The position numbers and the translations under genes are program-made. A DNA stretch of 64,000 nucleotides from a bacterium (GTDB lineage Bacteria > Patescibacteriota > UBA1384 > VFKW01), in NCBI GenBank assembly GCA_030647355.1, contig JAUSIS010000013.1, forward strand, positions 113,117 through 177,116, read 5' to 3'. Below the pieces are notes generated by a model. The model saw nothing but the letters and a program-made list of their open reading frames with translations. It did no database searches and was not told the origin of the DNA. Below are positions 13,046 to 53,787 of this stretch, piece by piece. Position 1 is the stretch's first letter; every line of letters begins with the position of its first letter.

Positions 13046-13215
13046 ACCGCCAGTTATCTGGCATCCGAACCTCACCCAGGATGAAATCAAATTCTCCTGG
13101 GTTTTTTTATACCCATAATCTCAAAAGTCAGTCGAATGCTAGGCTCGCTTGTTTGACGTAAAGACAACTTTATGGTTTACTAAAGCCACTGTTGGTTTTT
13201 TAGGGGGACTGATAA

Positions 13216-13680: not shown

Positions 13681-13934
13681 CCAATCCACACTATTCACGG
13701 GGAACACTACACGTTCCCCTATTTTTAATAAAAAAGACGGAATCCGTGTCCTCTTAAGAAACCAAGATCGCTGCCTCGCCACCGTTTGACAAAAACCTAT
13801 TTTTATGCTAATATATAACATCAAGACAAACCTCGTAATATCTTCCTTCAACCTATGGACAGCGCCTTGCGTACAAAAACAGTATTCAGAGCGCTGTTCA
13901 TAGCATCATATCACTTCGAAGGAGGATCCGTTTC

Positions 13935-14471
13935 ATGGAAAAAATCATCGTTATGGCATTAAGCGCGGTGAAAGTGCTGTTTGGCAAGGTGATTCTCTCT
14001 TGCCAAACAGCCGAGACACTTCAGGAGATCCAGGAAGTTATATCACAATGTCCTGACTGGAGAAAGTCCCTCGACAAGGTCAGCTTCTCCGAGAAGACTG
14101 GCTTATCGCTCTGCCGCCTGATCCACGGAGGTGCCTTATACCTCCAGCTGCGAAACCCCGTCGGACTGGTTAACTCGATCAGGATCGGAGTAATCGTAGC
14201 AGGAGACTCCGAATTCCAAACACCAACGACCTTGAACTTGCTCTTCTGTCAGTTGAAGGATCGGAAAGAATGGCGATTGGAAAAAGCAAGATGTGATCTT
14301 GCGGGAGTCATCGAGCCCGAGCCCATTCTGCGGCTTACGGAGCTACTTGGCCCAAATGGGCTTCCCGAACTAGGAGAAACCCTCAACCAGGCACCAATCG
14401 AACAAACCCGGGAAATCAGGGAGTTTCTGGACTCCTGGGTCCAGCAGCAGGTAACGACCGCAACCGCCTAG
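13935..14471 (+). CDS. Hypothetical protein, paralog A of a tandem pair (178 aa)
   Basis: Shares the block TGLSLCRLIHGGALYLQLRN with TLCQAVIGGALCLRFQE of the downstream 178-aa ORF. Upstream motif GCGCTGTTCATAG is shared with the paralog. GAAGGAGGA RBS. Confidence 0.5.
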   Translation: MEKIIVMALSAVKVLFGKVILSCQTAETLQEIQEVISQCPDWRKSLDKVSFSEKTGLSLCRLIHGGALYLQLRNPVGLVNSIRIGVIVAGDSEFQTPTTLNLLFCQLKDRKEWRLEKARCDLAGVIEPEPILRLTELLGPNGLPELGETLNQAPIEQTREIREFLDSWVQQQVTTATA

Positions 14472-14728
14472 CGACACCAACGCACACCAGAAACATCCTC
14501 ACCCTACAAAACCTCATTCCCCCGAGGCAAGACAAAGCACCACGCTTTTCACCTCGGGGCTTTGTTATTTATAGGCATTTTATAATTTTTAATTGACAAA
14601 ACTCAACAAATATGTGATTTTCAGATTAATATATTGTTCCTTTCAACCCCTCCTAGTGCTTATGGGCAGCACTTTGGATACCTAACTCAAGTATAAAAGG
14701 CATCCGAGGCGCTGTTCATAGACTACAT

Positions 14729-15265
14729 ATGGAGGACATAATGAATATTGTGCAAATGGCTCTTGTAGCGCTACGTGAACTGTTCGAAACTACAATGTCG
14801 GAAGAGTTCCCTGACCTGGGAAGCATCGCTTCCGAGCTGGAAAACATACGGCTTGGCAAATTCAAGTATTCCTACGACAACAACGGATTAACGCTCTGTC
14901 AAGCGGTAATCGGTGGCGCACTCTGCCTTCGTTTTCAAGAATCATCTCGGAGTAACACAGGCAAAGATCGGCTCACAGTCTGGCTCATCGGCGTGAGCTC
15001 CCTGAAGTGCAGCCAACTCACTCTTAGCCTCGGGTACAACCTAATAGGAATTGGGGTAGCGGAACTAGGTGCTATCAACTGCTCTTGGAGCACATCAGAT
15101 GTAGTTGCAAGCGGCGAGCCGATCAGTGCTTTCTTAAGACTGCTCCGGTTAGACGACTACAAAATGCTGGAAAGCGCCCTGAAAGCCAAGGAGGGTTTGG
15201 ATGACGTGCGCTACCTGAAGTACCTTCTCGATCTCTGGCGCCAGCGTTACCCAGAAAGCAAGTGA
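14729..15265 (+). CDS. Hypothetical protein, paralog B of a tandem pair (178 aa)
   Basis: Same length and conserved central block as 13935-14471. Upstream GCGCTGTTCATAG motif. Followed 12 nt later by a small Zn-ribbon ORF. Confidence 0.5.
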   Translation: MEDIMNIVQMALVALRELFETTMSEEFPDLGSIASELENIRLGKFKYSYDNNGLTLCQAVIGGALCLRFQESSRSNTGKDRLTVWLIGVSSLKCSQLTLSLGYNLIGIGVAELGAINCSWSTSDVVASGEPISAFLRLLRLDDYKMLESALKAKEGLDDVRYLKYLLDLWRQRYPESK

Positions 15266-19088: not shown

Positions 19089-19661
19089 TTGAATGCACGC
19101 CAACGAATGATCTGTTTTGTCCAAGGGATAGTTGCCGGACTCTGGAACAACCCGAAGTTCGAAACCGCTATCCTACCTGAGGCAACCGGGCTGAAACGGC
19201 TCGAGAATAGTTTCAGCCAGTACCCGGCACCCGCGGAACCGAACCGTATCATAACGGAGTACGGGCATGATGTCTTGAGTATTGGCTACATGACACTCGG
19301 CGGGCTGTTGACTTTCAACTGCTACCCCTACTCTTACATCATGTGTTGCATCAGGACTACCGTCGGACCTGACAGCCTGGAACAACTCTTCTCTCTCGGT
19401 TGGAACCTCAAAACCGACCAGATGGATAGGGTTGGAACGCCTAACTCAAATATCCTGTATCAAGGACTAAACGGCGCTTTCCTGGATCGGCTCAACGAAC
19501 AACTCGATGTTCTTGGACGGATACTGGCCGGCAGGTATCCCGGTGCTGACATCTATGGCTATTACACCGACCAGCTCAAGCAAATGCTGATGGCGGACGA
19601 GAGTCCTAGTGCGGTATTGTTCCGCGATCTACTCCTTGAATGCGGCTCGATCAGAGCCTAA
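19089..19661 (+). CDS. Hypothetical protein (GC-rich cassette)
   Basis: 190-aa ORF with a GGAGGA RBS. Own promoter at 18947-18975 and terminator at ~19674-19700. Confidence 0.45.
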   Translation: MNARQRMICFVQGIVAGLWNNPKFETAILPEATGLKRLENSFSQYPAPAEPNRIITEYGHDVLSIGYMTLGGLLTFNCYPYSYIMCCIRTTVGPDSLEQLFSLGWNLKTDQMDRVGTPNSNILYQGLNGAFLDRLNEQLDVLGRILAGRYPGADIYGYYTDQLKQMLMADESPSAVLFRDLLLECGSIRA

Positions 19662-21399: not shown

Positions 21400-21665
21400 C
21401 TCCCGCTTCATCGCTCCTTTGTTTCTTTGAAAAGGAGAAGTCAATTACGCTCCCAAAGAAGCCTCGGCCACAGGATGGAATCCTAGTGGAACGCTGGGAG
21501 TGTCTTTGAGGAAGTAATTTATTTTCGACGCTTCCCAAGAAGTCGTGCAGGGGTATGGGATTGTAAGGGACATAGGGGGCGGCATCGAAACGAGCCCCCT
21601 TACCCCTTACATACCCTGGCGCTGTCAGCGCCAAAAACCCAGGCATGTCCCATGCCCTCAAACAA
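21400..21665. ncRNA. GC-rich structured intergenic element (candidate small RNA; strand and class unknown)
   Basis: GC-rich island between two AT-rich genes. Nested hairpins CCTGGCGCTGTCAGCGCCAAAAACCCAGG and GGGGGCGGCATCGAAACGAGCCCCC. The 99-aa minus-strand ORF across it looks spurious. Confidence 0.3.
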
Positions 21666-24974: not shown

Positions 24975-25165
24975 GACAAAGAACCCATTGCACAAGTCTC
25001 TTAGGTACGAAACAGGAAAGATTATCGACGAAAGACTAGAACTTATGAGGAAACGTAGCCAAAGCTACGTTGACAAATAATTCTTGGCTTGCAGTCATAA
25101 GATTCCCTGCTGCAGTAACCAATAGATCCTGTGAAATGGGTTCGTTACCTTAACAAGAAAGGAAC
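24975..25165 (+). promoter_or_regulatory. Long structured leader upstream of the secreted-protein/radical-SAM operon (riboswitch-like architecture, class unknown)
   Basis: Promoter TTGACA-N17-GATAAT at ~24927-24955. Long-range pairing GAACCCATT (~25003) with AATGGGTTC (~25133) encloses about 120 nt containing the hairpin CGTAGCCAAAGCTACG. Confidence 0.3.
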
Positions 25166-25741
25166 ATGACCCTAATGAAACGTCTGATCATGGCAGTCCT
25201 GGCAGTATTTCTCATTTCTACCTCCCGCACCACCGCCGACCAGCTGGACACCCAGTTCAACTCCTCCCTTACCTGGAACCAGGACGGCATAACCAGCAAA
25301 TACATCCATAGGGAGGCCTACTTTGCCCATCTACGGGAGAATGAGGTGAACATCGGTGCTAGAGTCTCTGATAATCTGACACTGTACGGCGCCTACATCA
25401 CCAACAACCAAGGGGTAGATCGGGCCGGTATCGTCATCGCCATATCCCAACCGCTGGATAGTAAATGGCATGCCTCCGCCAGTCTTCACCTCTACAAAGG
25501 GCTGAACTCCGCTCCCGACAGGTTCAAATGGACCTTGGTCATCGCCAAACCGGTAAGCAAACACTGGTTAGTCGGTATCTACAACTTCGGCAACAGCGTG
25601 CACGGCAATCCCAATAAGTATTGGGAAGGCGGGCCAGCGCTGATTTATCGAAATGGCGCAACAACCATCCCCATTTTCTTTCTCCTGAAAGACGAGGGAA
25701 GAAAGGGAATCCAAGCCAACCTGAACTTCGCGCTAAAATAG
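25166..25741 (+). CDS. Secreted hypothetical protein (signal peptide, beta-rich)
   Basis: N-terminal signal MKRLIMAVLAVFLISTSRTTA. GC-rich. Overlaps or abuts the downstream radical SAM gene. Confidence 0.45.
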   Translation: MTLMKRLIMAVLAVFLISTSRTTADQLDTQFNSSLTWNQDGITSKYIHREAYFAHLRENEVNIGARVSDNLTLYGAYITNNQGVDRAGIVIAISQPLDSKWHASASLHLYKGLNSAPDRFKWTLVIAKPVSKHWLVGIYNFGNSVHGNPNKYWEGGPALIYRNGATTIPIFFLLKDEGRKGIQANLNFALK

Positions 25742-28721: not shown

Positions 28722-29363
28722 ATGCCGAAACTTCTGACTATACCTGAAAGCAGTCTTACCTCTCGCCCGGAGAACCAACCTGGGTACTACCGGCTCGAAA
28801 CCCTGATTGATAAGATTCTTGAGGCAGAGGACAAATTGATCCTCAGCCGGTTTCGAGTCATGCTGTCGATAGAATGCCGAGTCCGGCGGGGGGATGCAAT
28901 ACCCACCCAAGACCTTACGCGCATCGTGCCGAAGCTGATGGAAGCTGCCTCCAAGTCGGAGGAAGAATGGCCATTTTCGGTCGCCCTGTTCATCGAGGCA
29001 CAAACGGGTAGCCGCGCAGTCATTGAACAGTGGCTTCATCTCAACCGAGAAGAATGGAGAGTTGATAGCCGCTGCAGCTGCCCCTACTGTAAGGAGACAC
29101 ACTTCAATGTCCTGACAAAAGCACATCTTGCTTATCATATGCAAGAGCGGCAGGAATTACTGCGAGGTATGGAAGCCTATGTCGAACAGGAGTTCGGCAA
29201 AAGAGCATCCATCGTCAGGACTGAACCATTGGGATTCGTCGAAAATGGGCTCATAGGGTACCAGCTCGTCATTGCGATTCCCGGCAAACCAGATAAGCAG
29301 TACTGCATCGCCGTGGACGACGCCCTGCACAAAGAGGATCTCCTCTGGTCACTTTTCCCCTGA
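28722..29363 (+). CDS. Hypothetical protein (213 aa)
   Basis: Perfect TTGACA-N17-TAAAAT promoter at 28652-28680 and a GGAGGA RBS. Terminator at 29375-29407. CSCPYC motif. Confidence 0.45.
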   Translation: MPKLLTIPESSLTSRPENQPGYYRLETLIDKILEAEDKLILSRFRVMLSIECRVRRGDAIPTQDLTRIVPKLMEAASKSEEEWPFSVALFIEAQTGSRAVIEQWLHLNREEWRVDSRCSCPYCKETHFNVLTKAHLAYHMQERQELLRGMEAYVEQEFGKRASIVRTEPLGFVENGLIGYQLVIAIPGKPDKQYCIAVDDALHKEDLLWSLFP

Positions 29364-32847: not shown

Positions 32848-32882
32848 AATTCTTTTTTACTACAACCAAAGTGCTCCAAATT

Positions 32883-32910
32883 AAAAAAAGCACCCGATCA
32901 GTTCGGGTGC
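32883..32910 (-). terminator. Intrinsic terminator of the Dcd-like gene (minus strand)
   Basis: Plus strand reads A7-GCACCCGATCAGTTCGGGTGC, so the minus-strand RNA has the hairpin followed by U7. Confidence 0.6.
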
Positions 32911-32936
32911 CAACATAAACATACCAGCGAGGAAAC

Positions 32937-33776
32937 CTATAGCTCTTCCTCCACAACTTCGTACAAAAGTGACTCAAGCCCCCGTTTTACTACCTTAGGG
33001 AGCTCTCTCATCTGTACGCGCGGAGCCAATGCATAGTGCATATACTCTTGCCGCTCAACGACATCCTCGCGGAGCTCGTCATAAGGAGCACAGATCTCCC
33101 CCTCTACTGTGAAGAACTCCATCTGTCCGATCTTGAGACCCATTTTCAGTTCTAGTGGGAATGGACCCCCATGCTTGAGCTCCAAAACAATGCGGCCGCA
33201 AAATCCCGGATCTATTTTGGGCGCATCCCGAGTGACCGTTATACCCATACGCCCAGTCTTACTACGACCATGCACATACCCCATCAGGTCGCAGGGCAGC
33301 CAGTAGCGTCGCATAGTGTAAGCCAAAGCGAATGTCCCCGGCCTCAACACATACCTCTTGCCCGCATCAATGTGGTATGTCTGCAGATAGCCCTCCGCCC
33401 GCCTCATACTATCCTTATCATTCAGATCAATCACCAGATCAGTCGGCAGGTCCGAATATCCGTCCGTGCCTGGGAGTGGGGCTATTTTGAGTGTGTCTCC
33501 CAACTCCAGGTCGAGCGATACATTCCCCACCATACCATTCGGCTGAAAATCCGCCTCCGTATGCGGCGGATCTACCACAATAAAGCCGTGCCTCCTGGCT
33601 TCCTGGAACGACGGGGGACGCTCTTCAGGTTTGAGCCTCAGAAAATCTTCCCCCGAAAGCTCAATGCCCAAATCCGCCAAGCTAACCAAACGGGATTGGA
33701 TGGAGCTATACCCCAACACGCCAAACTTCTCGATATGCTGTCTTCCTAACATCCGTCTTACTAATTCAGCTCTCAC
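32937..33776 (-). CDS. dCTP deaminase/dUTPase-superfamily protein (extended, Dcd-like)
   Basis: QPNGMVGNVSLDLELG resembles the Dcd N-terminal beta-strand. KIDPGFCGRIVLELKH matches the Dcd/dUTPase active-site motif (IDPGFxGxxTLEL). GC-rich single-gene cassette with terminator at 32883-32910. Confidence 0.6.
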   Translation of the reverse strand: MRAELVRRMLGRQHIEKFGVLGYSSIQSRLVSLADLGIELSGEDFLRLKPEERPPSFQEARRHGFIVVDPPHTEADFQPNGMVGNVSLDLELGDTLKIAPLPGTDGYSDLPTDLVIDLNDKDSMRRAEGYLQTYHIDAGKRYVLRPGTFALAYTMRRYWLPCDLMGYVHGRSKTGRMGITVTRDAPKIDPGFCGRIVLELKHGGPFPLELKMGLKIGQMEFFTVEGEICAPYDELREDVVERQEYMHYALAPRVQMRELPKVVKRGLESLLYEVVEEEL

Positions 33777-33992
33777 TGTTTTGCTCCTAAATGGAAATGT
33801 GCTTTGCGGCTACCATACAGCAAACTCGCCGGGCTATCAAGCCCTAATCGTTTGACTAAAATCCAACCTTAAGTCAAGATACTTCCGACATGAAAGCTAT
33901 GTTACGTCATTGCTCTAGGAATACTAATCTGCCACAACGCCTCAAAATAATTTCTATGTGCCTGTGAGATATCATGGTTCTCGATAACTCCC

Positions 33993-34029: not shown

Positions 34030-34262
34030 TTCGCCAAACAGTATCTAGAACCCATCTTATAATTGCTTCTTGAAACGAAACTATCCTCGGCCGAGACGAG
34101 AGCGTAGGAGGTTGAGGAAGCGTAGCCACTGCTACACTGACGAAGCATCCTGCGGTAGCAGTCCGGTCCGAGATAGTTGCAGTTATCAGAGGTAGTTATA
34201 AGATGGGTTCCCAAACAATCTCCTAGTGGGATGATTGATGTAATTAATTTTCTGGAGGTTTC
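34030..34262 (+). ncRNA. Long structured 5' leader of the rpsF-ssb-rpsR operon (candidate ribosomal-protein autoregulatory leader)
   Basis: Visibly GC-rich in an AT-rich context, with multiple complementary segments (GCGTAGCCACTGCTACACTGACG, CTGCGGTAGCAG). No convincing ORF. Confidence 0.35.
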
Positions 34263-36722: not shown

Positions 36723-39700
36723 CTATTCCTCCGCCGGCACTTCCACCACCGACGTGATCGTACCCGTCGGTAGGTAAGACACGATAAACGCCCGGGAAAT
36801 CCCTCCGTAGTAACCAGTAACTTTCATTTTATTCAATGACTGGGTGTAGGCAATAAGGTTAAGGTAAAAAACCGCATTCCGCACATAGTCTAAAGTCCCT
36901 GGATGATATTGTCGTATAAATTGCTGTGTTGCTAAGTTATTGGGAGTTGCATACCAAACAGTCCATGGAGGTGACGGGGGCTTGTAATAGTGGAATTCTT
37001 GTTCCCAATATTTATTAAACGGGCTGGCAAGGTCGTCTATATCTATTGTAATCTCAACTAAATCATCGATTAGCGCATTTCCAAATCCCCTCTTAATTGC
37101 CAGCCCATTGAGCCATTCTTTCCAATAATCACCGTCTCCCCAAGTACTTGAATCATCAGGATCGTATCCCGGCGGTACGCCTTTGGAGAAAGCACTATTC
37201 ATCAAATCTAAATATTCGATCTGGCTGGATAGGCCGGATGCGCCAGCCAACGAACGGGATGAAATAAACAGAAATCCTCCTTTATCATCCACGCTGGCTA
37301 CCGCCATATTGGCCAGATCGCAAACCTGCCGGGCATTCCCGTCATGGTCTGTTCTGGTTTCGACCTTTTCATTATCCTCATTGTAGTAAGGAAGCTTTCT
37401 TAGCTTCCATCCCGGCTTACTTTGACATGGATAAGTTGCCAGTACATCAAATTTTAGTCCTAAATCGGTAATAGCATAAGCATTTAGACCGTAACCCATA
37501 TAACCACCCGTAACATATCCGGGTTCGCCTATCTTTAACACATCCCTCAATCGGGCGCTATTTAAACGAAAAATTGGATACAAACCGTTCCGGTCATAAA
37601 GACTGGCAAAAATCGGATGAGAAAATTCTACTGATGATCCATCTGTATTGCCCGGACTATTAGACCAGACGTCAAAGCCGTATTCGTTTGGAGGTGGGCT
37701 TCCTATCGGGGGTATATCCGCCAAATCTACTTTGGGATTCTGATCGGACCGTTCATAAGCATAACTGTAATCACCGCTATAAAAAAGCAGATTACCGGCG
37801 GTCTGATCGATGCTAATCGACTGGCTGCCGCTTGTAGAAATCGGCCGGTCTAACCCAAGTTTATCGTCAGGATTATTTTTGAAAAGTTCCCAAGTCTGCT
37901 GGGTTCCGTCAGTTTTAGCGTTAAGTTTCCATAAGAAATTCTTATTCGAAAGACTCGCCCCCGAGGAGCTTCCTCCCCACAGGTAAAGAAAATCTTCTCC
38001 TGCTATAGAGGCATAGTTTAAAGATCCGGCAGTTCTCGTCCTTGGCTTCTTGCTTGGATCAGTATCAACTTTCGGATCAGAATCTACTTTGACATATCTC
38101 CAGTCAACTCTCCAGTTATCAGGTAGTCCGGCTAATTGAGAAACTTCACCTACCCACGAAATAAATGATTGATCCGAAGTGTCTGTATTCAAAACAAACA
38201 TCTTATTACTGCCATTAGAAGTAAACAGATCGCCAGACGTCAAACTATAGGAGGGTTGATACCGCAGTAGTATCCTATGATCATTGTCAGCAATACTCTC
38301 AATATTATCAACAGTCGCAATAAACAGCTTGTTATTTCCGCTGATAATCGGCCCTAATGTTATCTGCTTGCCAGCATACAAACCCCTTGCTTGAGAATCG
38401 TCAAGCTGTAAAGTTGCAGGAGCATCGGTAATCAAGTCTTTAGTGATTGATGTGCTTAAAACCTCGCTGTTATAACTGCCTAAATTTACACTAAACATGG
38501 TTAATCCGTTATTTGCCAAAACCTCGCTGGTTCCACCAAGTATTAAATTATTTTCAAACTCAATTTTTTGACATCCTCGAGATCCAGGCGGATTAGTCGA
38601 AAAACAGCTAGCATCATAAAATATTTTTTTAACAGTACCCTTCATTCTCTGATTTTGCGTTCCTTGATCATCAACCGGACCAACAAGGTACTCCATTCCC
38701 AACGCAATCCCCCTTATGGTGCCTTGAGCTACTTTCAATACTTTAACTGTATCGTTCGGCACGGAGTTATTCATCCTCCCTTCGGGCACTAAAACAGCCT
38801 CATTCTGAATACTGCCTCCCAAGTGGTACATATTAAAATTAACGTTGCTGGATACGCCCTTGGGTTTCAGAAAATGCCAGGTCGGGCTCGCAGTAGTTAC
38901 GCCGGTTAATCTCCATGATGGCTTTTGAATTTTCATGTGGCTGTATCCGCCGAATACATACAAAGTATCCTCGGAAAAAACATAATAGCCCTGCGGATTA
39001 GACATATAATTCGGGCCCTCATAGAGCTGCCTGATGGATTTAACGGGTTGACCGGCTATCACCCCGACTTCGCTAACCCTCCCCCAGTAAACCTCATCAT
39101 AACTATCGGTTTGCTCTAAGTTTGGACTGTTTCCATAATAAGTGGCGACATCTCCCGGCGCCAAGCACCTGTTGCCATTACCCAAAGGATTAGCGCTATT
39201 CGTCATCTCGTCGCAACCCGGAGTTACGGTTGTTGCATTCGATAATTGAAGGGTTAATCTCCTTGTATCCGCAACTGACTCTGTATTCCTGCCCGCCAAT
39301 GGCTGGTCAAAGTGCAATTGATATCTGTAGGTTCCAAATCCAACGTCAGTACCGTCTGGAAACCTGGTAATTTTCGAAATCTTCCCCTTTAAATCAACAT
39401 ATTCAGTATCCCCGCCCGAACCATCTTTGGGCCCGTAAACTCGTATAATATCTCCCACCGTTAATCCGTCCGGATATACCTCATCGCCCACAGCGCCATG
39501 AGGAGCATATACGCTCGAGCGCATACTTAAAGTCACTTCATGTATTTCATTAGCTGGCAGCGTCGTTTTGGGCGTGATATTCGGCTCAATCCAATAATCG
39601 GTCGTTGGATTTACGGCCGAAGAACTGTTGATTGATTTATGCGAAAACACTTCTTGGAGGTAATCTCCGTCAGCTAGTACATCTATAACCGGACGGTCTA

Positions 39701-42113
39701 TAACCAGATTCCACTGGGGACTGGCAATAGTCGGATCGATTCTCCAGACATCCGCTGTGCTTCCGATGCTTGTCATGCCTGAATCCCCTACATTTCCAAG
39801 GTTGCCGCCTGCAACTACCAAATTCTTATTGTCTCTGCTGTAACTAACCAGCGCCTCGCTTCTTGGCAACGGACGGTTAATATTTGTGTTAGCAGGCTTA
39901 ATCAGTTTCCATGTTTGAGGTATGCCTCCGCTCAAACTTAGCTCCCAAAGATCATTCTTCTTATTCACGCCCATATTGAATATTATTGCTGTAAGCGGGT
40001 TATCATCCGAATCATCTGCCGGACGTAGATCCCTGTTTAGATATGTTTCATTAGCTGCCATATTGCCGTTTAGCGCGCGATTAGAAATATCTTTGCCGCC
40101 ATACAAGTACGCTATGTTCTCTGACTCGTCATAAACCATTCCGTGTCCTGACCTGGGAGTCGGGCCGAAATTTAAATCCACATGCATAGTCCCCGCTGCC
40201 CCCGGACCATAATCAATGCTGTTTACTCTGCCCCACAATGGCTCCAGATTGATATCGTCTGGCTCTAGCTGAACTATTGAACCGATCGTATAACCGCTTA
40301 TATTAGCAACCGGAACGGGTTGGTTCGCTCCTGGCAAAATCTCTACCGCAGTCCCTCCGCTCCAAATACTTTTTATTTTACTGATGTCATAGTTCCCGTT
40401 TAAATCGTATTTATTATATTCTTTTTGACCGGTAATAGTTTTAGGAAGTACATATACAGAATAGCCGTGACTCTGAAAATATTCATCATACTGAAAATTC
40501 ACAAAATTGACTCCATATCCGAAATTCATCCTATCGCCTTCCAGCGTCCCGCCAAAATCAAACTTATCAGGAATGAATATCAACGGCTTGGTTGTCAATC
40601 CGGTTCCGTCAATTATATGGATAATATCTGCCTTACCGCATACTTCGCGTGCTCCTCCGTTGTGAACTGGTTGAGAGAAATAGAGCGAATCCGGATCCAC
40701 CGTGAAAAAATTTCCGGCCGTATCGATGCTCGTAATAACCCCATCAACTGTAATGTTGAAATTATAAAAATTGCTCTTCCAATATTCCTGTCCGGTCGTA
40801 TACAGCGGATCAGGCCAAGGGTGACTATCCAATTGCAAATAATAATTATACTTAGCCATGACCTTGAGAAATGCCACTCTATCGCCAATTCCGAAAGACG
40901 ATGCTTGTCCGTATTTTAAGTAAACTTTGGTGTCCGGACCCATAAACGCCGTATCCAAAGATTTTGCGATGTTAACATCGTAAGCCAGTTCGCTTGCCGG
41001 AAAAGTCAGAACGGTTGGGGTTGTTTTCTTATAAAGCTGCCGTACATAATAATCCCCGCTAATTTTTTGAGTACTCCCGTTAGCGACAACAGATGCTTTC
41101 TCCCAATTAATTACATTCGAGGGAGTATTATCCGACGGATTGTAGGCATTCTTCATTACCCATAAATCATTACGCTTTCCTCCAGACAAATTCAGCTCGT
41201 CATTGATGATAGCTTTAGTATTGGGATCCATATTCTTTTCAATCGGTCCCCACTTAAATTGATAATTAGTGTCACCAATAAAAGGAGGGTTGATAATACC
41301 TTCGGTCGGATTAGGTAAATCGCTGTTGGCATCTATCATCAGCTTTCCCCCGACGCGATCCACATTCCCTGTTATCCAGTCTTCCAAATTAGTTCTCTCT
41401 TGGCCATCGAGTACCAGACTGTCTTCCGGCAAAGATAAAATCAAAAGATCGTATTTCAAATAGCCCGGATTACTGAACAGACCGGAATATTTCACCCCGC
41501 CAGTATTAGTCACGCCAACATTCCCTTGATCCAGCGGTCCGCCCATTAAAACCTGCCAGTATTCAATCTTGTTTTTCGCATAAACCTTGCCTGTAGAAGG
41601 GTCAATCGGTGCAAGGGGATTCACAAAATCCTTAAATCCGTTATCTTTCAATATAGTACTGCTAGACATTGCCGATCCAATCGTAGTAAAGATATCATTG
41701 GGCTGGACGTAACTTCCTGCAGCTGCATCCCACGCTGAAATTACTGCGACATTGGTGCACCTGGAAATTGTTTTTATTTTTTCTTCCGGAGTAAACGAGT
41801 AATATTTGATATATGGCGCTTTCTTGGAATCTGTTGAAGCTTGGTTTCCAGTGTCAAAGTTTATTAGCATTGTCTGATCAAAAGACGGGTCACCGGCCAA
41901 TTTTTTGCTTAAATCAGAAACTCCTGCCAGCGCCGCTTCCCTCGCCACTCTCGCGTCATTATAAGAAGCCGCATTGCCGATTATGGAGTAACTGTTTATC
42001 GCCGCTCCTAAGGTCGCCGCCGTCATCAAAGTAACAATAAGCAAAGTAAGAACCAATACAGTCCCCTGCTTTTTGAGACCTGTACAATTAAATTTTATTT
42101 TGCCTAAAGCCAT
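36723..42113 (-). CDS. Giant (1796 aa) T4P-associated surface protein: PilX_N-like N-terminal prepilin-type helix plus Kelch/beta-propeller-like repeats (PilY1-like tip adhesin candidate)
   Basis: N-terminus KKQGTVLVLTLLIVTLMTAATLGAAINS resembles the PilX_N hydrophobic helix. Multiple Kelch-like segments (for example SGHGMVYDESENIAYLYGGKD). Last gene of the minus-strand prepilin/pilC cluster. Confidence 0.65.
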   Translation of the reverse strand: MALGKIKFNCTGLKKQGTVLVLTLLIVTLMTAATLGAAINSYSIIGNAASYNDARVAREAALAGVSDLSKKLAGDPSFDQTMLINFDTGNQASTDSKKAPYIKYYSFTPEEKIKTISRCTNVAVISAWDAAAGSYVQPNDIFTTIGSAMSSSTILKDNGFKDFVNPLAPIDPSTGKVYAKNKIEYWQVLMGGPLDQGNVGVTNTGGVKYSGLFSNPGYLKYDLLILSLPEDSLVLDGQERTNLEDWITGNVDRVGGKLMIDANSDLPNPTEGIINPPFIGDTNYQFKWGPIEKNMDPNTKAIINDELNLSGGKRNDLWVMKNAYNPSDNTPSNVINWEKASVVANGSTQKISGDYYVRQLYKKTTPTVLTFPASELAYDVNIAKSLDTAFMGPDTKVYLKYGQASSFGIGDRVAFLKVMAKYNYYLQLDSHPWPDPLYTTGQEYWKSNFYNFNITVDGVITSIDTAGNFFTVDPDSLYFSQPVHNGGAREVCGKADIIHIIDGTGLTTKPLIFIPDKFDFGGTLEGDRMNFGYGVNFVNFQYDEYFQSHGYSVYVLPKTITGQKEYNKYDLNGNYDISKIKSIWSGGTAVEILPGANQPVPVANISGYTIGSIVQLEPDDINLEPLWGRVNSIDYGPGAAGTMHVDLNFGPTPRSGHGMVYDESENIAYLYGGKDISNRALNGNMAANETYLNRDLRPADDSDDNPLTAIIFNMGVNKKNDLWELSLSGGIPQTWKLIKPANTNINRPLPRSEALVSYSRDNKNLVVAGGNLGNVGDSGMTSIGSTADVWRIDPTIASPQWNLVIDRPVIDVLADGDYLQEVFSHKSINSSSAVNPTTDYWIEPNITPKTTLPANEIHEVTLSMRSSVYAPHGAVGDEVYPDGLTVGDIIRVYGPKDGSGGDTEYVDLKGKISKITRFPDGTDVGFGTYRYQLHFDQPLAGRNTESVADTRRLTLQLSNATTVTPGCDEMTNSANPLGNGNRCLAPGDVATYYGNSPNLEQTDSYDEVYWGRVSEVGVIAGQPVKSIRQLYEGPNYMSNPQGYYVFSEDTLYVFGGYSHMKIQKPSWRLTGVTTASPTWHFLKPKGVSSNVNFNMYHLGGSIQNEAVLVPEGRMNNSVPNDTVKVLKVAQGTIRGIALGMEYLVGPVDDQGTQNQRMKGTVKKIFYDASCFSTNPPGSRGCQKIEFENNLILGGTSEVLANNGLTMFSVNLGSYNSEVLSTSITKDLITDAPATLQLDDSQARGLYAGKQITLGPIISGNNKLFIATVDNIESIADNDHRILLRYQPSYSLTSGDLFTSNGSNKMFVLNTDTSDQSFISWVGEVSQLAGLPDNWRVDWRYVKVDSDPKVDTDPSKKPRTRTAGSLNYASIAGEDFLYLWGGSSSGASLSNKNFLWKLNAKTDGTQQTWELFKNNPDDKLGLDRPISTSGSQSISIDQTAGNLLFYSGDYSYAYERSDQNPKVDLADIPPIGSPPPNEYGFDVWSNSPGNTDGSSVEFSHPIFASLYDRNGLYPIFRLNSARLRDVLKIGEPGYVTGGYMGYGLNAYAITDLGLKFDVLATYPCQSKPGWKLRKLPYYNEDNEKVETRTDHDGNARQVCDLANMAVASVDDKGGFLFISSRSLAGASGLSSQIEYLDLMNSAFSKGVPPGYDPDDSSTWGDGDYWKEWLNGLAIKRGFGNALIDDLVEITIDIDDLASPFNKYWEQEFHYYKPPSPPWTVWYATPNNLATQQFIRQYHPGTLDYVRNAVFYLNLIAYTQSLNKMKVTGYYGGISRAFIVSYLPTGTITSVVEVPAEE

Positions 42114-42124
42114 AACCTCTCCTG

Positions 42125-42778
42125 TCAGATTTCTTCAATATTACTGATATTGCTTGCAATAAAACGCAGTTCAATCTTACTTGGACGCGCCAGCACACTC
42201 AAGAGCTTGGAATTACCCGAATTAAAGTTGCCAAGTTTGCTGTATCGTGCTTCTTCCATAGACATCTCTACCTTAATTGCAAACTTATCATTCGGAGGAA
42301 CAGCGTCCGCACCAGTATAGACAGGAATAAAACGTAGCTTCCGTAAAAATACTTTATCCGAACTAATAATCTGCTTATGTAAGACTCCGGGGGCAGTACT
42401 TTTTTCCACCGTCATTTCAATGCTCCTACTGTTAACCGTCGGATTGATTGTCTCGATAATTGTTGTATTGCCGTCAATATCCAATCGGGTTATTTTAATC
42501 GTATCGCAAAAAACTGAAACCCCTTTACAATTCACCACATCTACTGGCTTAACGATCACTACATTGCTAGCGCTCTGCACCTCACGGTTGATGAACTCGC
42601 CGACAAATCTCGTTTCATCTTGCACTTCCCTCATTCCCTCGACTCTATCGCGCATTCTGGCACTCATAATAACCGAACCGGCTGACATCAACATGGCAAT
42701 AGTAAAAATTACTACGGAAACCAGTATCTCAATCAGTGTAAATCCGTTTCTCTCATTCAATTTCACAGCTTTTATCAT
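42125..42778 (-). CDS. Type IV pilus minor pilin (prepilin-type N-terminal cleavage/methylation domain)
   Basis: NGFTLIEILVSVVIF class III signal peptide. Confidence 0.7.
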   Translation of the reverse strand: MIKAVKLNERNGFTLIEILVSVVIFTIAMLMSAGSVIMSARMRDRVEGMREVQDETRFVGEFINREVQSASNVVIVKPVDVVNCKGVSVFCDTIKITRLDIDGNTTIIETINPTVNSRSIEMTVEKSTAPGVLHKQIISSDKVFLRKLRFIPVYTGADAVPPNDKFAIKVEMSMEEARYSKLGNFNSGNSKLLSVLARPSKIELRFIASNISNIEEI

Positions 42779-43242
42779 ATATTCCTCTTAATTACTGCAA
42801 GAGTCTCAATATAATTTTTTTTGGCTAATTCTGCGGCATCACATTTTGACTTGCTCACTGCCTCCGGCCCAAAGCAAACACCAACTTTGATTTTGGCATA
42901 ATCCGAATCGCTGAAAGCATCCTCCACTGTTATAATTCGGTAATATCTTCCGCCGTAGAGATAAACCTTCCCATCACTGGCGTCATCGGTTACAGCTAAA
43001 TCTTCACTTAAAAACTTTGTCCCGTTACCCGGAAAAGAAACCGACCCTTGATAATTCAAAATTTTCAAAACTTCCACCCCTTCTGTCGCTAGATAATACG
43101 CCTGCGTCTGTACTGCCGCCCGGTCAGCCAGACGAAATGAATTAAAATGCAAAGAAAGCGATGCTGATCCTACAGTTACAACCAGTAAAACGCTAATCAG
43201 CACCTCAATTAACCCAAAACCGTATTTATTCAGTCTCCCCAT
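42775..43242 (-). CDS. Type IV pilus minor pilin (PilV-like prepilin)
   Basis: YGFGLIEVLISVLLV prepilin N-terminus. Confidence 0.7.
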   Translation of the reverse strand: MGRLNKYGFGLIEVLISVLLVVTVGSASLSLHFNSFRLADRAAVQTQAYYLATEGVEVLKILNYQGSVSFPGNGTKFLSEDLAVTDDASDGKVYLYGGRYYRIITVEDAFSDSDYAKIKVGVCFGPEAVSKSKCDAAELAKKNYIETLAVIKRNI

Positions 43243-43252
43243 AAAATATCTC

Positions 43253-44617
43253 CTAATACAATAATTCCAAAACCGGAGCCGGTCTCACAGCTACAGACGA
43301 ATCACCGCCAGTCCCTCCACCTTCATCCTCGATACTAACCGATCCCTCTGAATCGTACTTTTCCTTGCTCAAAAACTCGACACTATCCCCTGAAGTTAAA
43401 TAGAAAACTAGCGGTAGATCATAATCAATCGATCCTGTTCCATTCCACCATGCTTTGTGCCTGGCTAAGTTAAACTCGATTGAATAACGGGTATTCTTTT
43501 CCACGTCTACTAACTCCCCTACTTCACTGCGATTTGCCCCTGCCTCCGCATAGATATGGCAGTCGCTAAACGTAGGACTAGACTCGCTGCAATTCCCCTC
43601 CAAGTCTGAATCCGGCTTAAGCATATAAATATCTACCAAACTGCCTGCTGTAACAATATCGCCTGTAGTCAGCCATAATCTGGCCCGTTTTGGAAATTTG
43701 TTCGGCTCGCTCGGGTCAGTTAAGCTGGCCCAATCGAACATGACAAATGATTGGTTGCCGTCATTAACTCTCAATATATTTCCAATCCAATCCCCTCCCC
43801 CTGCATCCCAATACGAGTCTTGCATAATCAACGATTCAGCGCTTGAATTATCGGGGAAAACCGCCATATCTGTTGACTCGCTGGCTTCTCTCGATATCCA
43901 AACCTGCCCGCTGTATTTGTTAATATTGACATACATAAATTCCGTATCCGAACTCGTTGTATTTTTTATCTTTTCATATCTGATATTTTTCAATTTCACT
44001 CTAAAGGTGTTTTCCTGTTTCGTTGAGTCCCATAATTCCGCGTTCTGCGAATCAACACTCTTCGTACCCCCGCAGGTAATGTCAAAATTTGCTAAAGTAA
44101 ACCGGACACCGGTTCTGGTTATTTTTTTCGATGTGTCGCCGTCAACCGGAATCAATTCCTCAGTGCCTGCTTTAATTGATTCTAAGAGCTTTTCCGGCGA
44201 AAATCCGTCAATCATAATACCGTCCGAAAAATCGATTGATTTGATTAATGTGGACGATAATTGATTGCTTCGATTATCACATGCCGTTACAATTCCCTGA
44301 ATTTCCACCGGTGAATTCGTCACAACTGCGTTTGAACCTGATGTCGTCTTAACTTGCTCATTCTTTTTTGTTATCCCGTTAATAAACTTGATCTCGAAAG
44401 CGGTAAAATTACTCCGACCGACATTCCCCCCCCGTGGAGCAATGGCATCGGTCCGCGCCTCGATCACTGCCTGCCTTATCGTCTCCGCCGCAGTCGTCAG
44501 ACTGCTTCGTTCTTGAATTCCGTTAACTTGAGGCATAGCTAAAGCCGTCAAAATTACAATGACGCCAATTACTACAATTAACTCAATTAAAGTGTATCCT
44601 TTTTTTAATGATTTAAT
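43253..44617 (-). CDS. Large type IV pilin-like protein (~455 aa); start codon uncertain (no in-frame ATG upstream of the prepilin motif)
   Basis: KKGYTLIELIVVIGVIVILTALAMPQ prepilin motif. The only plausible initiation is a non-ATG codon (ATT at 44615-44617) 5 nt after an AAAGGAGA RBS. The in-frame stretch upstream back to 44713 is probably not translated. Confidence 0.55.
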   Translation of the reverse strand: MKSLKKGYTLIELIVVIGVIVILTALAMPQVNGIQERSSLTTAAETIRQAVIEARTDAIAPRGGNVGRSNFTAFEIKFINGITKKNEQVKTTSGSNAVVTNSPVEIQGIVTACDNRSNQLSSTLIKSIDFSDGIMIDGFSPEKLLESIKAGTEELIPVDGDTSKKITRTGVRFTLANFDITCGGTKSVDSQNAELWDSTKQENTFRVKLKNIRYEKIKNTTSSDTEFMYVNINKYSGQVWISREASESTDMAVFPDNSSAESLIMQDSYWDAGGGDWIGNILRVNDGNQSFVMFDWASLTDPSEPNKFPKRARLWLTTGDIVTAGSLVDIYMLKPDSDLEGNCSESSPTFSDCHIYAEAGANRSEVGELVDVEKNTRYSIEFNLARHKAWWNGTGSIDYDLPLVFYLTSGDSVEFLSKEKYDSEGSVSIEDEGGGTGGDSSVAVRPAPVLELLY

Positions 44618-44785
44618 CCCATCTCCTTTTATATTTAAATGTATGTGATATCCTTCGAGCCCCACCGGCCAGCAGAGTCGAGAAGCTCGGTTCTCCACAA
44701 GCCAGAACAGCATCCTTCCCTGTCATTGCGAGCGCATTTCTGTCATTGCGAGCGTAGCGTGGCAATCTTTCTCTTTCCCAACTTC

Positions 44786-44840
44786 CTTCTTACTTCTTAC
44801 TGCTTACCAGCTTATCGCTTATTACTTACTGCTTAACTAG
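44786..44840 (-). repeat. Heptanucleotide tandem repeat (GTAAGNA)n in 5' leader of large pilin gene
   Basis: Plus strand reads CTTACTTCTTACTGCTTACCAGCTTATCGCTTATTACTTACTGCTTAA, about 7 units of NGCTTAC. Related repeat at 53227-53268. Confidence 0.5.
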
Positions 44841-44843
44841 CCC

Positions 44844-45461
44844 CTATTCCATAAGGCAAGGTGTGCAAATTTTGGTAATATCAAACTCGAAAATCCAATC
44901 TGGAGGCACTTCAGGATATACGCTAACCGTTCCATCTGTTCGAATACTCTTATCGGTCCCCTTTTCATATCTGTTAGAATCACTGCCGGCTCCTGTTGTA
45001 TCCGTCGTTAAATCATTATCATTCGAGTTCTCTAGTTGAGCCGAAATCTCAAAATTCAAACCATCTTCCGACGGTCGGTATCTGTATGCATATCCTGTCT
45101 TTGAATCCTGCACATAGGTATCGGCATAACCGTCCTTGATCATCCCATTAACATTACCGCCATCACCCTTCATAAGTTTCTCGTAGCCGCCTTGCTCGCC
45201 GTCATAATAGCAAGGGAAATTAACTTTCAAAGCAGGTAATGTTTTCTCGCAAGGCAGAGGGTAAGTCTTTTTATCGGCATAATATAAAGTCAAATACCCC
45301 TGTATTTTCGCCAAATCACTTTTCCTTTTAGCATCTCTGGATCTCAACCTCACTGCGCTCGTGCCAACCAGCGAAATTACCATTAAAATTGAAATGATGG
45401 AAATAACTACCAACAATTCTATCAGAGTAAAAGCTGAAATCCTTTCCCTTTTAATTTTCAT
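44844..45461 (-). CDS. Type IV pilin (major pilin candidate)
   Basis: ISAFTLIELLVVISIISIL prepilin leader and N-terminal helix. 205 aa. Confidence 0.75.
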   Translation of the reverse strand: MKIKRERISAFTLIELLVVISIISILMVISLVGTSAVRLRSRDAKRKSDLAKIQGYLTLYYADKKTYPLPCEKTLPALKVNFPCYYDGEQGGYEKLMKGDGGNVNGMIKDGYADTYVQDSKTGYAYRYRPSEDGLNFEISAQLENSNDNDLTTDTTGAGSDSNRYEKGTDKSIRTDGTVSVYPEVPPDWIFEFDITKICTPCLME

Positions 45462-45470
45462 AATGCCTCC

Positions 45471-46664
45471 TTAAAAAGCATTAACCAAGCTATATATCGG
45501 ACCTAAAATACTAATGACCACAAATCCAACACCGCCGCCCAGTACAATAAAGATAAACGGTTCCAAAAGTGATGTAAATGTCTTTAATTTATTATCCACT
45601 TCTTCCTCATAATACTCGGCAAGAGTATCGCACATTCCCGAAAGATCACCAGTCTGCTGACCGACATAGAGCAACTGGCTCATAAGCGGTGGGAAATATT
45701 TACTTTTCTTCAGTACCGAGCTTATCGGCAAACCCTGCTCCAGCGATTTAGATATACTCAATACCAGATCTATGTAAATCGTATTTGTCGTAATAGTCGC
45801 CAATATATTCACCGACTCGATAATCGGCACTCCAGCCAGAAGCAGCAAGGAAAAAGTCCGATTAAAACGAGCATAAAAAACTTCCCTAACAAGAGTCCCA
45901 AACACCGGAAAATTTATGCTTATAACACTTTTAGTCTTTTTGCCAGTGTTACTAATCATAAATACTTTATATCCGGCCACCAAAAATATTATACCCATAA
46001 TAATCAAATACCAATACTGAGTCATAAACCTGCTCAACGCAATCAAAATTTGAGTTTGTATAGGCAAAGCCAGATTTTGCTCCTCAAAAATCTGACTAAT
46101 AGAAGGAATGACCTTAGTCATCACAATAAAAATGACAGCTATCATCACACACACGATTACAATCGGATAAACCATAGCCCCACGGATTTTAGCAGTAAAA
46201 GAAGCCGAAGTCGCCACTTCAGCCGATAACTCGTTAAGAACAATTTCCATCTTACCCGTCGCCTCCCCGGCGCGCAGAACCCCGGTTTCTATACTGGGAA
46301 AAACTTGCGGATAATTTTCCATCATCCGTGATAATGGAAAACCATTCTGTAATCCAAGACTCATCTCCTCTAATACTCTTCCCAGCGATTTATTGGGTGT
46401 TTGCCTGGCAATCTCGATCGCTTGTGTAATAGAAACACCGGCTTTAAGCATTGTCGTTAACTGCCGATACAGCAAACTGCGATCTCTCGCCTTCACAGAA
46501 AAAGACAGAAATATGTCCTGCCATTTGGTTTTCTCAGTAATTGAGATTACTTTGAGTCCCCGTTTTTCCACATCTTTATGCACTTGTTCCATATCAGAAG
46601 AGGCAACCTTGCCGTTGACAATTTGCCCTTTGTCATCACTCGCCTTAAAAGTAAAGATTTTCAT
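45471..46664 (-). CDS. pilC: Type IV pilus assembly platform protein PilC (GspF family)
   Basis: Two GspF-type repeats each with three TM segments, including the QLLYVGQQTGDL...L motif region. Confidence 0.85.
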   Translation of the reverse strand: MKIFTFKASDDKGQIVNGKVASSDMEQVHKDVEKRGLKVISITEKTKWQDIFLSFSVKARDRSLLYRQLTTMLKAGVSITQAIEIARQTPNKSLGRVLEEMSLGLQNGFPLSRMMENYPQVFPSIETGVLRAGEATGKMEIVLNELSAEVATSASFTAKIRGAMVYPIVIVCVMIAVIFIVMTKVIPSISQIFEEQNLALPIQTQILIALSRFMTQYWYLIIMGIIFLVAGYKVFMISNTGKKTKSVISINFPVFGTLVREVFYARFNRTFSLLLLAGVPIIESVNILATITTNTIYIDLVLSISKSLEQGLPISSVLKKSKYFPPLMSQLLYVGQQTGDLSGMCDTLAEYYEEEVDNKLKTFTSLLEPFIFIVLGGGVGFVVISILGPIYSLVNAF

Positions 46665-49698: not shown

Positions 49699-49739
49699 AA
49701 CCTCCTCCTTACCTGTTCGAAATTATATACGGAAACTTG

Positions 49740-51050
49740 AATATATAATTACAATTCCTATTGCAGACATAGATTCAATCTTACGGTAATATAATATTAA
49801 TTTTATGTATACATTACACTATACATGCCATTGTATTCTACGTTATTACATGTATTATTTTTTGTCAAGTTTCACTTAATATTATTTGCACGTATTAAAT
49901 TATTCGACTGGTTAATTATTCTATATACGCTTATTAGCGTTTACGTGTAATAATCTATTTCCGCTATATTTTTTAATTGTATTATTATCGCAAAAGAACT
50001 AATTCGTTGATAATACTTGCATACCTCCATGTTAGACTCAGACAGTTCAAAATGTTACAACATAACGTATTCTAATAATAACTTCGGCAATAAAATTCCT
50101 CATGTCAAAGATAAAATTCATGTTCAAAGCGATCCTAAAGCCAAAATAGGTACGATTACAAATCATCTAATAACTAGCAATGTTCACTATAACAATTTGA
50201 AAAACAACAAGTAATAAAATCTATATTACATCAATCGCCACATCGTTCAAATCGTCAGAACCTGCACTAAGTAGTCGGCATTCAATATCTAACATTCCGC
50301 ACTCAAGATTTTACATTTAACATTTGTCAATTTAACAATGCAATTGTCCGCTCGTAAACAATAATTTCTAGCTGAAATATAAAACAAAGTGTCTGCTCCA
50401 AAAGCAATATTTACGATTGTAAAATATTAACAAATAATTTAAGTTGGACGATTGCTCAGTTATTAAAATCAACAAACATACTATGAAACAAAAACTTCTA
50501 AATATTAATATACAGATCGTCGCTCAACTAATAGAATTGGTAAATATACTAACAGAAATACTACATTTCAAAGTCCATAATCATTTGAACAATAATATTT
50601 TATTTTACAACTAATTGAATATGATTTTTGGTCGCAATAATGGCAAAAATGCAAAGCAATATACTCACCAATCGTATTATATATATTGAACTAAAGAGCA
50701 AAATAAGCGCATAAGGTACCTTAAAAAGTGAGTAACCGTATATCAAGTGAGATATTTGTTGTCGAAGTATAATAGACAGATACTAAACTGTTTATACAAT
50801 TATTGTCGAAATCTTTTCTACATTACTTTACGATAATCTACATTAGAATCAGCCAATTAACCACTCAAAAACTAATAATATATCAACTACTTGAGTTTAA
50901 GGAATTTTATGATGATTTAATACTTAGACTTACGACATCCATTTAGCTTGCATTCCCTATATTATTCAATTACACTTGAACGTTAATTGCAACAAATTAT
51001 TGTACAACCTATATTGACATAATAATCAAAAACCCTATTGCATTTGGCAA
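49740..51050. other. 1.3-kb extremely AT-rich non-coding tract between parA and groEL (candidate replication origin or decayed mobile DNA)
   Basis: No ORF longer than 65 aa on either strand. Much lower GC than either neighbour. Adjacent to parA. Confidence 0.4.
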
Positions 51051-51082
51051 AAGAAAAGTCCCGGCTCGCGGGACTTTTCTTA
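51049..51082. terminator. Bidirectional terminator downstream of groEL
   Basis: AAAAGAAAA-GTCCCGGCTCGCGGGAC-TTTTCTT. Confidence 0.6.
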
Positions 51083-51104
51083 CTTTGAATTTATATTTTT
51101 TAGC

Positions 51105-53753: not shown

Positions 53754-53758
53754 TCGCC

Positions 53759-53787
53759 TTGACAATCGCTCATCCGGCTGTTACAAT
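53759..53787 (+). promoter_or_regulatory. Consensus sigma70-type promoter TTGACA-N17-TACAAT
   Basis: Immediately downstream of copy 1 of the two-copy structured element. Drives the 53846 cassette. Confidence 0.55.

Follow-up and report, generated by a model that had tools for sequence, protein, structure and literature searches.

An elongated and divergent dCTP deaminase-like protein encoded in a chromosomal segment of a Patescibacteria member

The gene considered here lies in a 64,000-nucleotide stretch of contig JAUSIS010000013.1 (assembly GCA_030647355.1, positions 113,117 to 177,116 of the forward strand; hereafter, the window) from a bacterium of the Patescibacteriota lineage, and its product resembles dCTP deaminase (Dcd). 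The protein is identical to NCBI MDO8513792.1, which is annotated as "hypothetical protein", and its homologues are listed as dCTP deaminase at JGI. Judged by sequence comparison, it is probably a dUTPase-superfamily dCTP deaminase, divergent and elongated, and the reading favoured here, to which we give a probability of about 0.75, is that of a functional, chromosomally inherited dCTP deaminase feeding thymidylate synthesis. As far as can be seen, it belongs to a rare elongated Dcd subfamily confined to Patescibacteria (Candidate Phyla Radiation, CPR, bacteria). A CPR-rich Dcd clade has already been described, and a eukaryotic descendant complements E. coli Δdcd (PMC10733785); what is new here is a divergent member of a known enzyme family that carries conserved decorations.

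Assignment to the Dcd family is based on profile, structure, and active-site comparisons. The Pfam DCD model (PF22769) matches residues 60-223 with 92.2 bits, passing its cutoff of 27, and a PHROG dCTP deaminase family scores 77 bits. Models of trimeric dUTPases stay below threshold, i.e., 13.1 bits against a cutoff of 22 for Pfam PF00692 and 13-20 bits against cutoffs of 103-130 for the NCBIfam dUTPase models. In a sequence search of the PDB, E. coli Dcd was the best match (E = 3e-21, residues 121-244), followed by bifunctional Dcd:dut enzymes, of which those of B. halodurans and M. tuberculosis scored 59-62 bits and that of M. jannaschii 26 bits. An AlphaFold2 model built from the family alignment has a mean predicted local distance difference test score (pLDDT) of 74, with values of 84-96 at residues ~20-100 and 120-230. 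Compared by Foldseek, this model matches the E. coli structures 2j4h/1xs1 with E = 4.5e-14, a probability of 1.0, and a target template-modelling (TM) score of 0.80, and bifunctional deaminase:dUTPase structures with E values of 1e-12 to 1e-10. The predicted fold is thus a dUTPase-like β-barrel. Together, the Pfam score and the predicted fold match bear out the initial annotation, made from the DNA alone, of an unusually long protein with a Dcd/dUTPase fold. The active-site motif quoted there (KIDPGFCGRIVLELKH, Table 1) and the QPN...VSLDLELG stretch (residues 78-93) are both present, and the length excess of approx. 90 residues proposed at that time is close to the 86 counted here relative to E. 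coli Dcd (193 aa, sequence verified).

Comparison of the active site relied on anchor sequences that are 100% identical to PDB chains 1xs1 (E. coli), 2qxx (M. tuberculosis), 1ogh (M. jannaschii), and 9ln0 (the archaeal protein P45). Ser172, Arg176, Ala185, Asp189, and Glu199 of the window protein are equivalent to S111, R115, A124, D128, and E138 of E. coli Dcd, and all five are invariant in 13 aligned family members and in E. coli Dcd; retention of the catalytic Glu and Ser, proposed earlier as a check, was therefore found throughout the family. Glu199 also corresponds to E129 of the M. tuberculosis and E145 of the M. jannaschii enzyme, so that the Glu is kept in all three characterised deaminases. 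Arg115 and Glu138 of E. coli Dcd are reportedly essential for deamination (Johansson et al. 2005, J Biol Chem 280:3051). Entries of the E. coli Dcd mutants E138A and E138D are present among the PDB matches. P45, an archaeal Dcd-like dUTPase without deaminase activity (PMC5122711; structure 9ln0), serves as a control: in the alignment it has Met at the position of the catalytic Glu, which argues that the window protein, in keeping Glu199, has retained a deaminase-specific residue.

The additional ~86 residues are found at both ends of the protein and in one loop (Table 1). The N-terminal tail (residues 1-18) is poorly conserved. The adjoining segment of residues 19-62 has an occupancy of 0.93 in the family alignment, a mean identity to the window protein of 47% (compare 48% for the core), and a pLDDT of 87-96. 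In the closest homologue, P0002, whose start is mis-called, the DNA ahead of that start encodes the segment as well; in the P0013 lineage it is broken by stop codons, so that at least one lineage can do without it. Two origins are suggested by sequence comparison. In looser metagenomic Dcds of ~212-248 aa (P0015, P0017, and others), a canonical 'LSDRDI..RL' helix is followed by an insertion of ~30 aa and then by the first core strand, which suggests that segment 19-62 arose by insertion after helix 1. Alternatively, the MAFFT alignment and the Pfam coordinates suggest that the segment is a pure N-terminal extension. In the loop insertion, identity to the window protein is 19% and residues 104-108 have a low pLDDT, whereas the C-terminal extension has an occupancy of 0.72, weak conservation, and a pLDDT below 50. 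Our guess is that these extra segments are peripheral structural or regulatory decorations.

The elongated family is rare. A single-sequence search returned 13 proteins, and a profile search returned 15 clusters in total among 5.8 billion. In an exhaustive hidden Markov model search of 1.84 billion representatives, two close clusters (>345 bits) were followed by five at 136-173 bits; after these top seven came a continuum of ordinary ~190-aa Dcds, with 8,823 proteins at E<=1e-3. The closest homologue (P0002) is 52% identical to the window protein. In a bootstrapped neighbour-joining tree, the two were paired in 96/100 replicates, and the elongated family was monophyletic in 79/100.

By analogy with the Dcd enzymes of E. 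coli, M. tuberculosis, and M. jannaschii, the protein would form a homotrimer with active sites located between subunits. It would bind dCTP-Mg2+, and deamination of the cytosine ring would need no metal, Glu199 acting as the general base together with Ser172 and Arg176. The product would be dUTP, or dUMP and pyrophosphate (PPi) if the enzyme is bifunctional, and this would be further utilized by thymidylate synthase, Tmk, and Ndk to yield dTTP. The trimeric state, substrate, product, regulation, and physiological role are all ones we infer from these better-known enzymes. Dcd or Dcd:dut makes the dUMP precursor, is regulated by dTTP, and controls both dUMP supply and the dCTP:dTTP balance (PMC5519681).

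The genomic surroundings of homologues point in the same direction. In one homologous locus (L006), the order is Tmk-Dcd-ThyX-kinase-dCMP deaminase-TrxR...MiaA, with dNK close by, and in another (L088), it is Tmk-Dcd-TrxR...MiaA. The repeated adjacency of Tmk and the adjacency of ThyX, taken together with the literature on Dcd and Dcd:dut (PMC5519681), fit a dCTP deaminase acting in thymidylate synthesis, and the two Ndk genes of the window can be counted for the same reading. Of the roles considered in the initial annotation, it is thus the salvage enzyme supplying dUMP that the Tmk-Dcd(-ThyX) clusters support. The accompanying idea of a pathway-poor organism is plausible for a Patescibacteria host; however, the window itself encodes PurD as well as the two Ndk proteins. 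Other homologues have different neighbours. The locus of the closest homologue (L091) has a convergent ychF, whose product is 66.5% identical to the YchF of the window, and thus repeats the window arrangement minus the gene for a peptidoglycan (PG)-binding protein. L090 and L092 are mutually syntenic (Tig-ClpP...Dcd), three syntenic Saccharibacteria-type contigs (L002, L004, and L005) share SBP_bac_5-Dcd-Metallophos, and L007 has GH130-Dcd-Def. A '137-aa ORF' that seemed to recur beside the gene in L091 and L092/L093 turned out to represent unrelated proteins and was dismissed as a coincidence.

The odds that the enzyme is bifunctional, forming dUMP and PPi directly, are roughly even. That the L006 cluster, complete in other respects, has no dut lends weak support to bifunctionality. 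In the neighbour-joining bootstrap, E. coli Dcd was nearer than M. tuberculosis Dcd:dut in 40/100 replicates, and the tree gave the family no clear placement with either the monofunctional or the bifunctional anchors. To our knowledge, there is no sequence signature for bifunctionality; literature searches gave no usable sequence rule for telling mono- from bifunctional enzymes and nothing usable on Dcd in CPR metabolism. If the Dcd is monofunctional, a NUDIX enzyme encoded elsewhere in the window could in principle handle dUTP. A bolder proposal is that the three additions give the enzyme a function of its own; it might, for example, be a dUMP-forming deaminase that is self-sufficient, is regulated in another way, and enables dut-less Patescibacteria to make thymidylate, perhaps after horizontal spread among them. 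We regard this as rather unlikely.

Several observations weigh against a vertically inherited dCTP deaminase of thymidylate synthesis. The distribution is patchy: a full-length member was found in 1 of 185,579 GTDB species genomes, a metagenome-assembled genome of Ca. Saccharibacteria, and the next matches in that scan were Dehalococcoidia Dcds with 32-37% identity. The NCBIfam equivalog model TIGR02274 scores 88.8 bits, just short of its cutoff of 92.8, although such a near miss is consistent with a divergent subfamily. Lys178 and Tyr179 of the E. coli lid show no obvious conservation, and the lid and tail are modelled at low confidence. In E. coli Dcd, the C-terminal lid, with Tyr171, Lys178, and Gln182, closes over the triphosphate; in the elongated family, 'PY' and 'RQE(G)' are conserved, the equivalent of Lys178 is hard to place, and pLDDT in this region falls below 50. 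Within the 64 kb of the window there is no Dut, ThyA/ThyX, or Tmk, so that pathway partners in this genome are only presumed; a tblastn search of the window with the Tmk, ThyX, dNK, dCMP deaminase, and TrxR of L006 gave the Dcd gene itself as the sole match. Finally, in four of seven loci the GC content at third codon positions (GC3) of the gene exceeds that of its neighbours by 0.11-0.25, which would not be expected of a housekeeping gene inherited only vertically.

Some of these points would also suit a Dcd-fold enzyme with another activity, either a dUTPase only or a deaminase/pyrophosphatase whose specificity the extra segments would have shifted to a different pyrimidine nucleotide. There is a precedent in Pyrococcus and Thermococcus, whose proteins annotated as Dcd are dUTPases (PMC5122711; PDB 9ln0/8y1w), and both the score under the TIGR02274 cutoff and a lid region unlike that of E. 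coli Dcd could be read in this way. Nonetheless, the family has kept without exception the deaminase-specific Glu missing from P45, along with the Ser, the Arg, the Asp, and the pocket Ala, and the Tmk/ThyX neighbourhood suits dUMP supply; another activity therefore appears improbable. Horizontal transfer deserves more weight, and it is compatible with the favoured mechanism, as the gene could be an accessory gene of the same chemistry circulating among Patescibacteria. Its GC3 is above that of its neighbours in the window (0.59 vs. 0.35-0.48), in L088 (0.52 vs. 0.27-0.33), in L007 (0.44 vs. 0.21-0.30), and in L090 (0.47 vs. 0.29-0.31), whereas it is host-like in L091, L006, and L004. The GC3 excess, the extremely patchy distribution of the elongated family, and the variety of neighbourhoods (at least five different ones among the homologous loci) leave room for horizontal spread among Patescibacteria. 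However, no integrase, transposase, tRNA gene, or flanking repeat adjoins the gene, and the nearest recombinase is 23 kb away. The ychF/dcd arrangement is common to the window and the closest relative. In the syntenic block shared by L088 and L006, similarity is 58% for Dcd, 49% for TrxR, and 51% for MiaA, which does not indicate replacement in situ. Moreover, gene composition in the window is bimodal, and the GC contrast is thus not specific to this gene. The shared ychF arrangement, the congruent divergence in the L088/L006 block, and the lack of boundary repeats and mobility genes speak against a recent cassette insertion. An accessory gene circulating among Patescibacteria is possible but not likely; older horizontal spread among these bacteria is possible.

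A further proposal of the initial annotation was that of an anti-phage nucleotide-depletion effector; on this view, a stand-alone dCTP deaminase would be activated by infection and drain dCTP. There is a precedent for defence by dCTP depletion: the experimentally demonstrated defensive dCTP deaminase, a protein of 576 aa that combines a kinase domain at its N-terminus with a zinc-dependent cytosine deaminase domain at its C-terminus, was recognised via its association with defence islands (bioRxiv 10.1101/2021.04.26.441389). The locally raised GC content and the single-gene layout might also seem to fit. However, the precedent enzymes do not have the Dcd fold, and nothing of their architecture is seen in the window protein, which has 279 rather than more than 350 residues, a single DCD domain, no N-terminal nucleotide-kinase domain, no match to the zinc deaminase domain of the PF00383 type, and no sensor or regulatory domain. 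PADLOC models gave 0 matches to it at E<=1; among the window neighbours tested, they found only generic ABC-ATPase similarity 11 kb away and the helix-turn-helix of a TrmB-like regulator. No defence genes adjoin the gene in the window or in the ~10 homologous loci (L002-L007 and L088-L094), where neighbours are housekeeping or nucleotide-metabolism genes; a survey of homologue neighbourhoods for defence genes, as recommended initially, thus came out negative. Two homologues are embedded in thymidylate-pathway clusters, and ychF/dcd synteny is kept in the nearest relative. The link to phages is also weak, the best tblastn match among 50,697 phage records having 32% identity over 68% of the query, and fold matches in BFVD cover the core only. 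A conserved chromosomal context and a placement among housekeeping bifunctional Dcd-Dut enzymes had been named as arguments against defence; the former was found in part, in that the closest homologue keeps the convergent ychF/dcd pair, and on the latter the bootstrapped tree gave no clear answer. The defence hypothesis draws on a common enzyme name rather than on homology and is most improbable.

The matches among the 1.84 billion representatives also include proteins of 688-760 aa with a C-terminal Dcd-like domain (P0078, P0084, P0093, P0095, P0103, P0119, P0126, P0128, and P0145). If any Dcd-fold protein acts in defence or signalling, such a role would be sought in these multidomain fusions rather than in the window gene.

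The features of the gene and of the intergenic element next to it are collected in Table 1. Besides the GTG, an in-frame ATG at 33752 (Met9) could serve as the start; it falls where most homologues begin with 'ML', and translation starts at one or the other of these codons. The terminator-like hairpin lies 26 nt past the stop codon and, given the A-tract on its other side, may also serve the convergent gene for the PG-binding protein. The opposite flank is a 486-bp divergent promoter region common to the gene and rpsF. The gene had been described as a cassette between convergent terminators; only one terminator-like hairpin is present, downstream, and the other side is a promoter region, nor do flanking repeats mark any cassette boundaries.

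Table 1. Features of the dcd-like gene and of the 163-nt hairpin element (window coordinates)
Feature	Position	Strand	Basis or remarks
Elongated Dcd-family coding sequence, 279 aa	32937..33776	-	ORF (open reading frame) list; stop codon 32937-32939
GTG start codon, 7 nt downstream of Shine-Dalgarno AGGAG	33784..33788 (AGGAG)	-	Direct sequence reading
Weak sigma70-like promoter candidate, TTGATA-17-TATGGT, 9/12	33812..33840	-	Consensus scan; not above chance expectation
Intrinsic-terminator-like hairpin (9-bp stem, 6 GC pairs) with T-run	32879..32911 (hairpin 32911-32889)	-	Scan and sequence
Family-conserved N-terminal segment, residues 19-62, before first core strand	33591..33722	-	Without counterpart in ~190-aa Dcd
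Loop insertion, residues 100-113	33438..33479	-	'NPHxHPV...' in most homologues, divergent in window protein
GRSKTGR motif, residues 170-176	33249..33269	-	Invariant alignment columns; HMMER alignment to 1xs1/2j4h
KIDPGFCGRIVLELKH, residues 187-202	33171..33218	-	Alignment; contains Asp189 and catalytic Glu199
C-terminal extension, residues 251-279, past lid region PYDE..RQE	32940..33026	-	Alignment
Rod-like hairpin, copy 1, 163 nt	34048-34210	+	In the 486-bp gap between dcd-like gene and rpsF
Rod-like hairpin, copy 2, exactly 163 nt	24981-25143	+	Same orientation

In composition, the gene is indeed GC-rich, as had been noted (GC 0.527 vs. ~0.42 and 0.39 in the flanking genes), whereas the description of its surroundings as foreign-looking was overstated: its GC3 of 0.586 ranks 9th of 59 window genes (z = 1.16), and approximately a quarter of the window genes share its GC of ~0.52. 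The window genes fall into two GC classes, at ~0.52 and ~0.41. The former, with genes at 11032-15265, 19089-19661, 25166-25741, 28722-29363, 53615-54607, and 55307-56248, includes many ORFans without Pfam matches, PurD, a FabD-like protein, a B12-radical SAM protein, and the Dcd gene. The latter is made up of core genes, those for ribosomal and pilus proteins included. The ORFans showed no paralogy with one another. A strongly AT-rich trio on the minus strand (56393-58916), with a GC content of 0.28-0.30 and z values from about -2.3 to -2.5, codes for a HIT/DcpS-like protein, the above-mentioned NUDIX hydrolase, and an AAA_18 nucleotide-kinase-like protein; this nucleotide-metabolism trio adjoins the second Ndk gene and deviates far more in composition than the Dcd gene.

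The window as a whole looks like a typical CPR chromosome. Its GroEL is 70-72% identical to those of its named relatives, which belong to Ca. Berkelbacteria and to the 'Patescibacteria group'. The local gene order is ychF, the gene for the 674-aa PG-binding protein, the dcd-like gene, and rpsF-ssb-rpsR-efp, and GroEL, ParA, PurD, and the two Ndk proteins are encoded elsewhere. Besides PilC (T2SSF) and several N-methyl pseudopilins, a type IV pilus-like cluster (36723-46664, minus strand) encodes a protein of 1,796 aa in which Kelch/β-propeller signals are faint; clusters of this kind are typical of episymbiotic Patescibacteria. The sole recombinase of the window is a XerC/D-like tyrosine recombinase (8591-9577), ~23 kb from the dcd-like gene, and no tRNA genes were found in the 64 kb. 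A 485-aa protein (5211-6668, plus strand) has an N-terminus resembling the Phd/YefM antitoxins at a sub-threshold score (26.7 bits against a cutoff of 29.8) and a GC content at second codon positions (GC2) of 0.63; this unusual codon-position composition suggests a long low-complexity tail.

The gap between the dcd-like gene and rpsF contains a rod-like hairpin element that is possibly more intriguing than the dcd-like gene itself. Copy 1 folds with -88 kcal/mol (z = -11.3) on the plus strand and -66 kcal/mol (z = -5.4) on the complement. The two copies share identical 8-nt termini (GAACCCAT...ATGGGTTC), an apex, and ~60% identity, and their flanks are non-homologous. Among 50 consensus pairs, 31 are unchanged between the copies, 18 are changed on both sides with pairing kept, and a single pair is changed on one side. 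In both cases, the element begins exactly 27 nt past the -10 hexamer of a sigma70-like promoter matching the consensus at 11/12 positions and ends shortly before a plus-strand start codon (52 nt before rpsF for copy 1 and 22 nt before the ORF at 25166 for copy 2). The element had no match in Rfam, a covariance model revealed no further convincing copy in the window, distant rpsF loci are without it, a pattern scan of viral contigs was empty, and an exact look-up of S18, made in the course of the same follow-up, gave no match. It could be a leader-RNA module or a palindromic repeat resembling a miniature inverted-repeat transposable element (MITE).

Other non-coding parts of the window include a 1.4-kb AT-rich stretch (49699-51104; GC 0.28) from parA to groEL, with a terminator-like hairpin at 51051-51081; no DnaA-box cluster, informative repeats, or Rfam match were found in it. 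Unusually stable folds are predicted on the plus strand at 21486-21655, upstream of an ABC transporter gene, and at 60816-60985, at the end of the gap located at 60.4-61.0 kb, where the stretch reaches into the end of the phosphoglucomutase gene; relative to mononucleotide shuffles, z is about -5.3 to -5.5. Neither has a sequence relation to the 163-nt element.

As the evidence stands, the dcd-like gene encodes an ordinary metabolic enzyme of modest significance. Its interest lies in the documentation of a rare, decorated Dcd subfamily in Patescibacteria, for which nucleotide economy is central to host-dependent life. If it is true that the extra segments alter regulation or confer bifunctionality, this would help to explain how dTTP is synthesized without Dut in reduced genomes. 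The analysis also corrects the tempting inference of a possible defence role for every stand-alone 'dCTP deaminase', as the defensive enzymes have a different fold.

Among the known systems, monofunctional E. coli Dcd (EC 3.5.4.13; 1XS1, 2J4H) is the best match in both sequence and structure. Its Ser111, Arg115, Ala124, Asp128, and Glu138 are kept, and its PY and Q-x-G lid elements are recognisable in the window protein; however, identity is only ~29%, ~86 residues are additional, and His121, Lys178, and Tyr179 of the E. coli enzyme are not conserved. Bifunctional Dcd:dut enzymes (EC 3.5.4.30; 2QXX, 1OGH, and 4XJC from B. halodurans) have the same fold and catalytic residues, but their sequence scores are lower than that of E. 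coli Dcd, and the tree gave no clear grouping with either kind of enzyme. With the defensive dCTP deaminase (Tal et al.; 'dCTPdeaminase' in PADLOC/DefenseFinder) and AvcD, the window protein shares the nominal reaction only, whereas the fold is unrelated, sequence similarity is absent, and there is no defence-island context. The metagenomic Dcds of ~212-248 aa (P0014-P0023, P0058, P0065, P0134, and P0161), which are the next-best matches of the family profile (87-173 bits), likewise have an extra helical segment between the N-terminal helix and the first core strand, but they are without the C-terminal extension and NPHxHP loop of the family, and they group with it in 21/100 bootstrap replicates. 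Finally, the taxon pairing of the genome scan, a Saccharibacteria member followed by Dehalococcoidia, is the same as in the CPR/Chloroflexi-rich Dcd clade to which eukaryotic 'Dcd2' is related (Mol Biol Evol 2023, PMC10733785); this is a lead only. Dictyostelium Dcd2 complements E. coli Δdcd (PMC10733785), and this indicates that the divergent Dcds of that neighbourhood are real deaminases.

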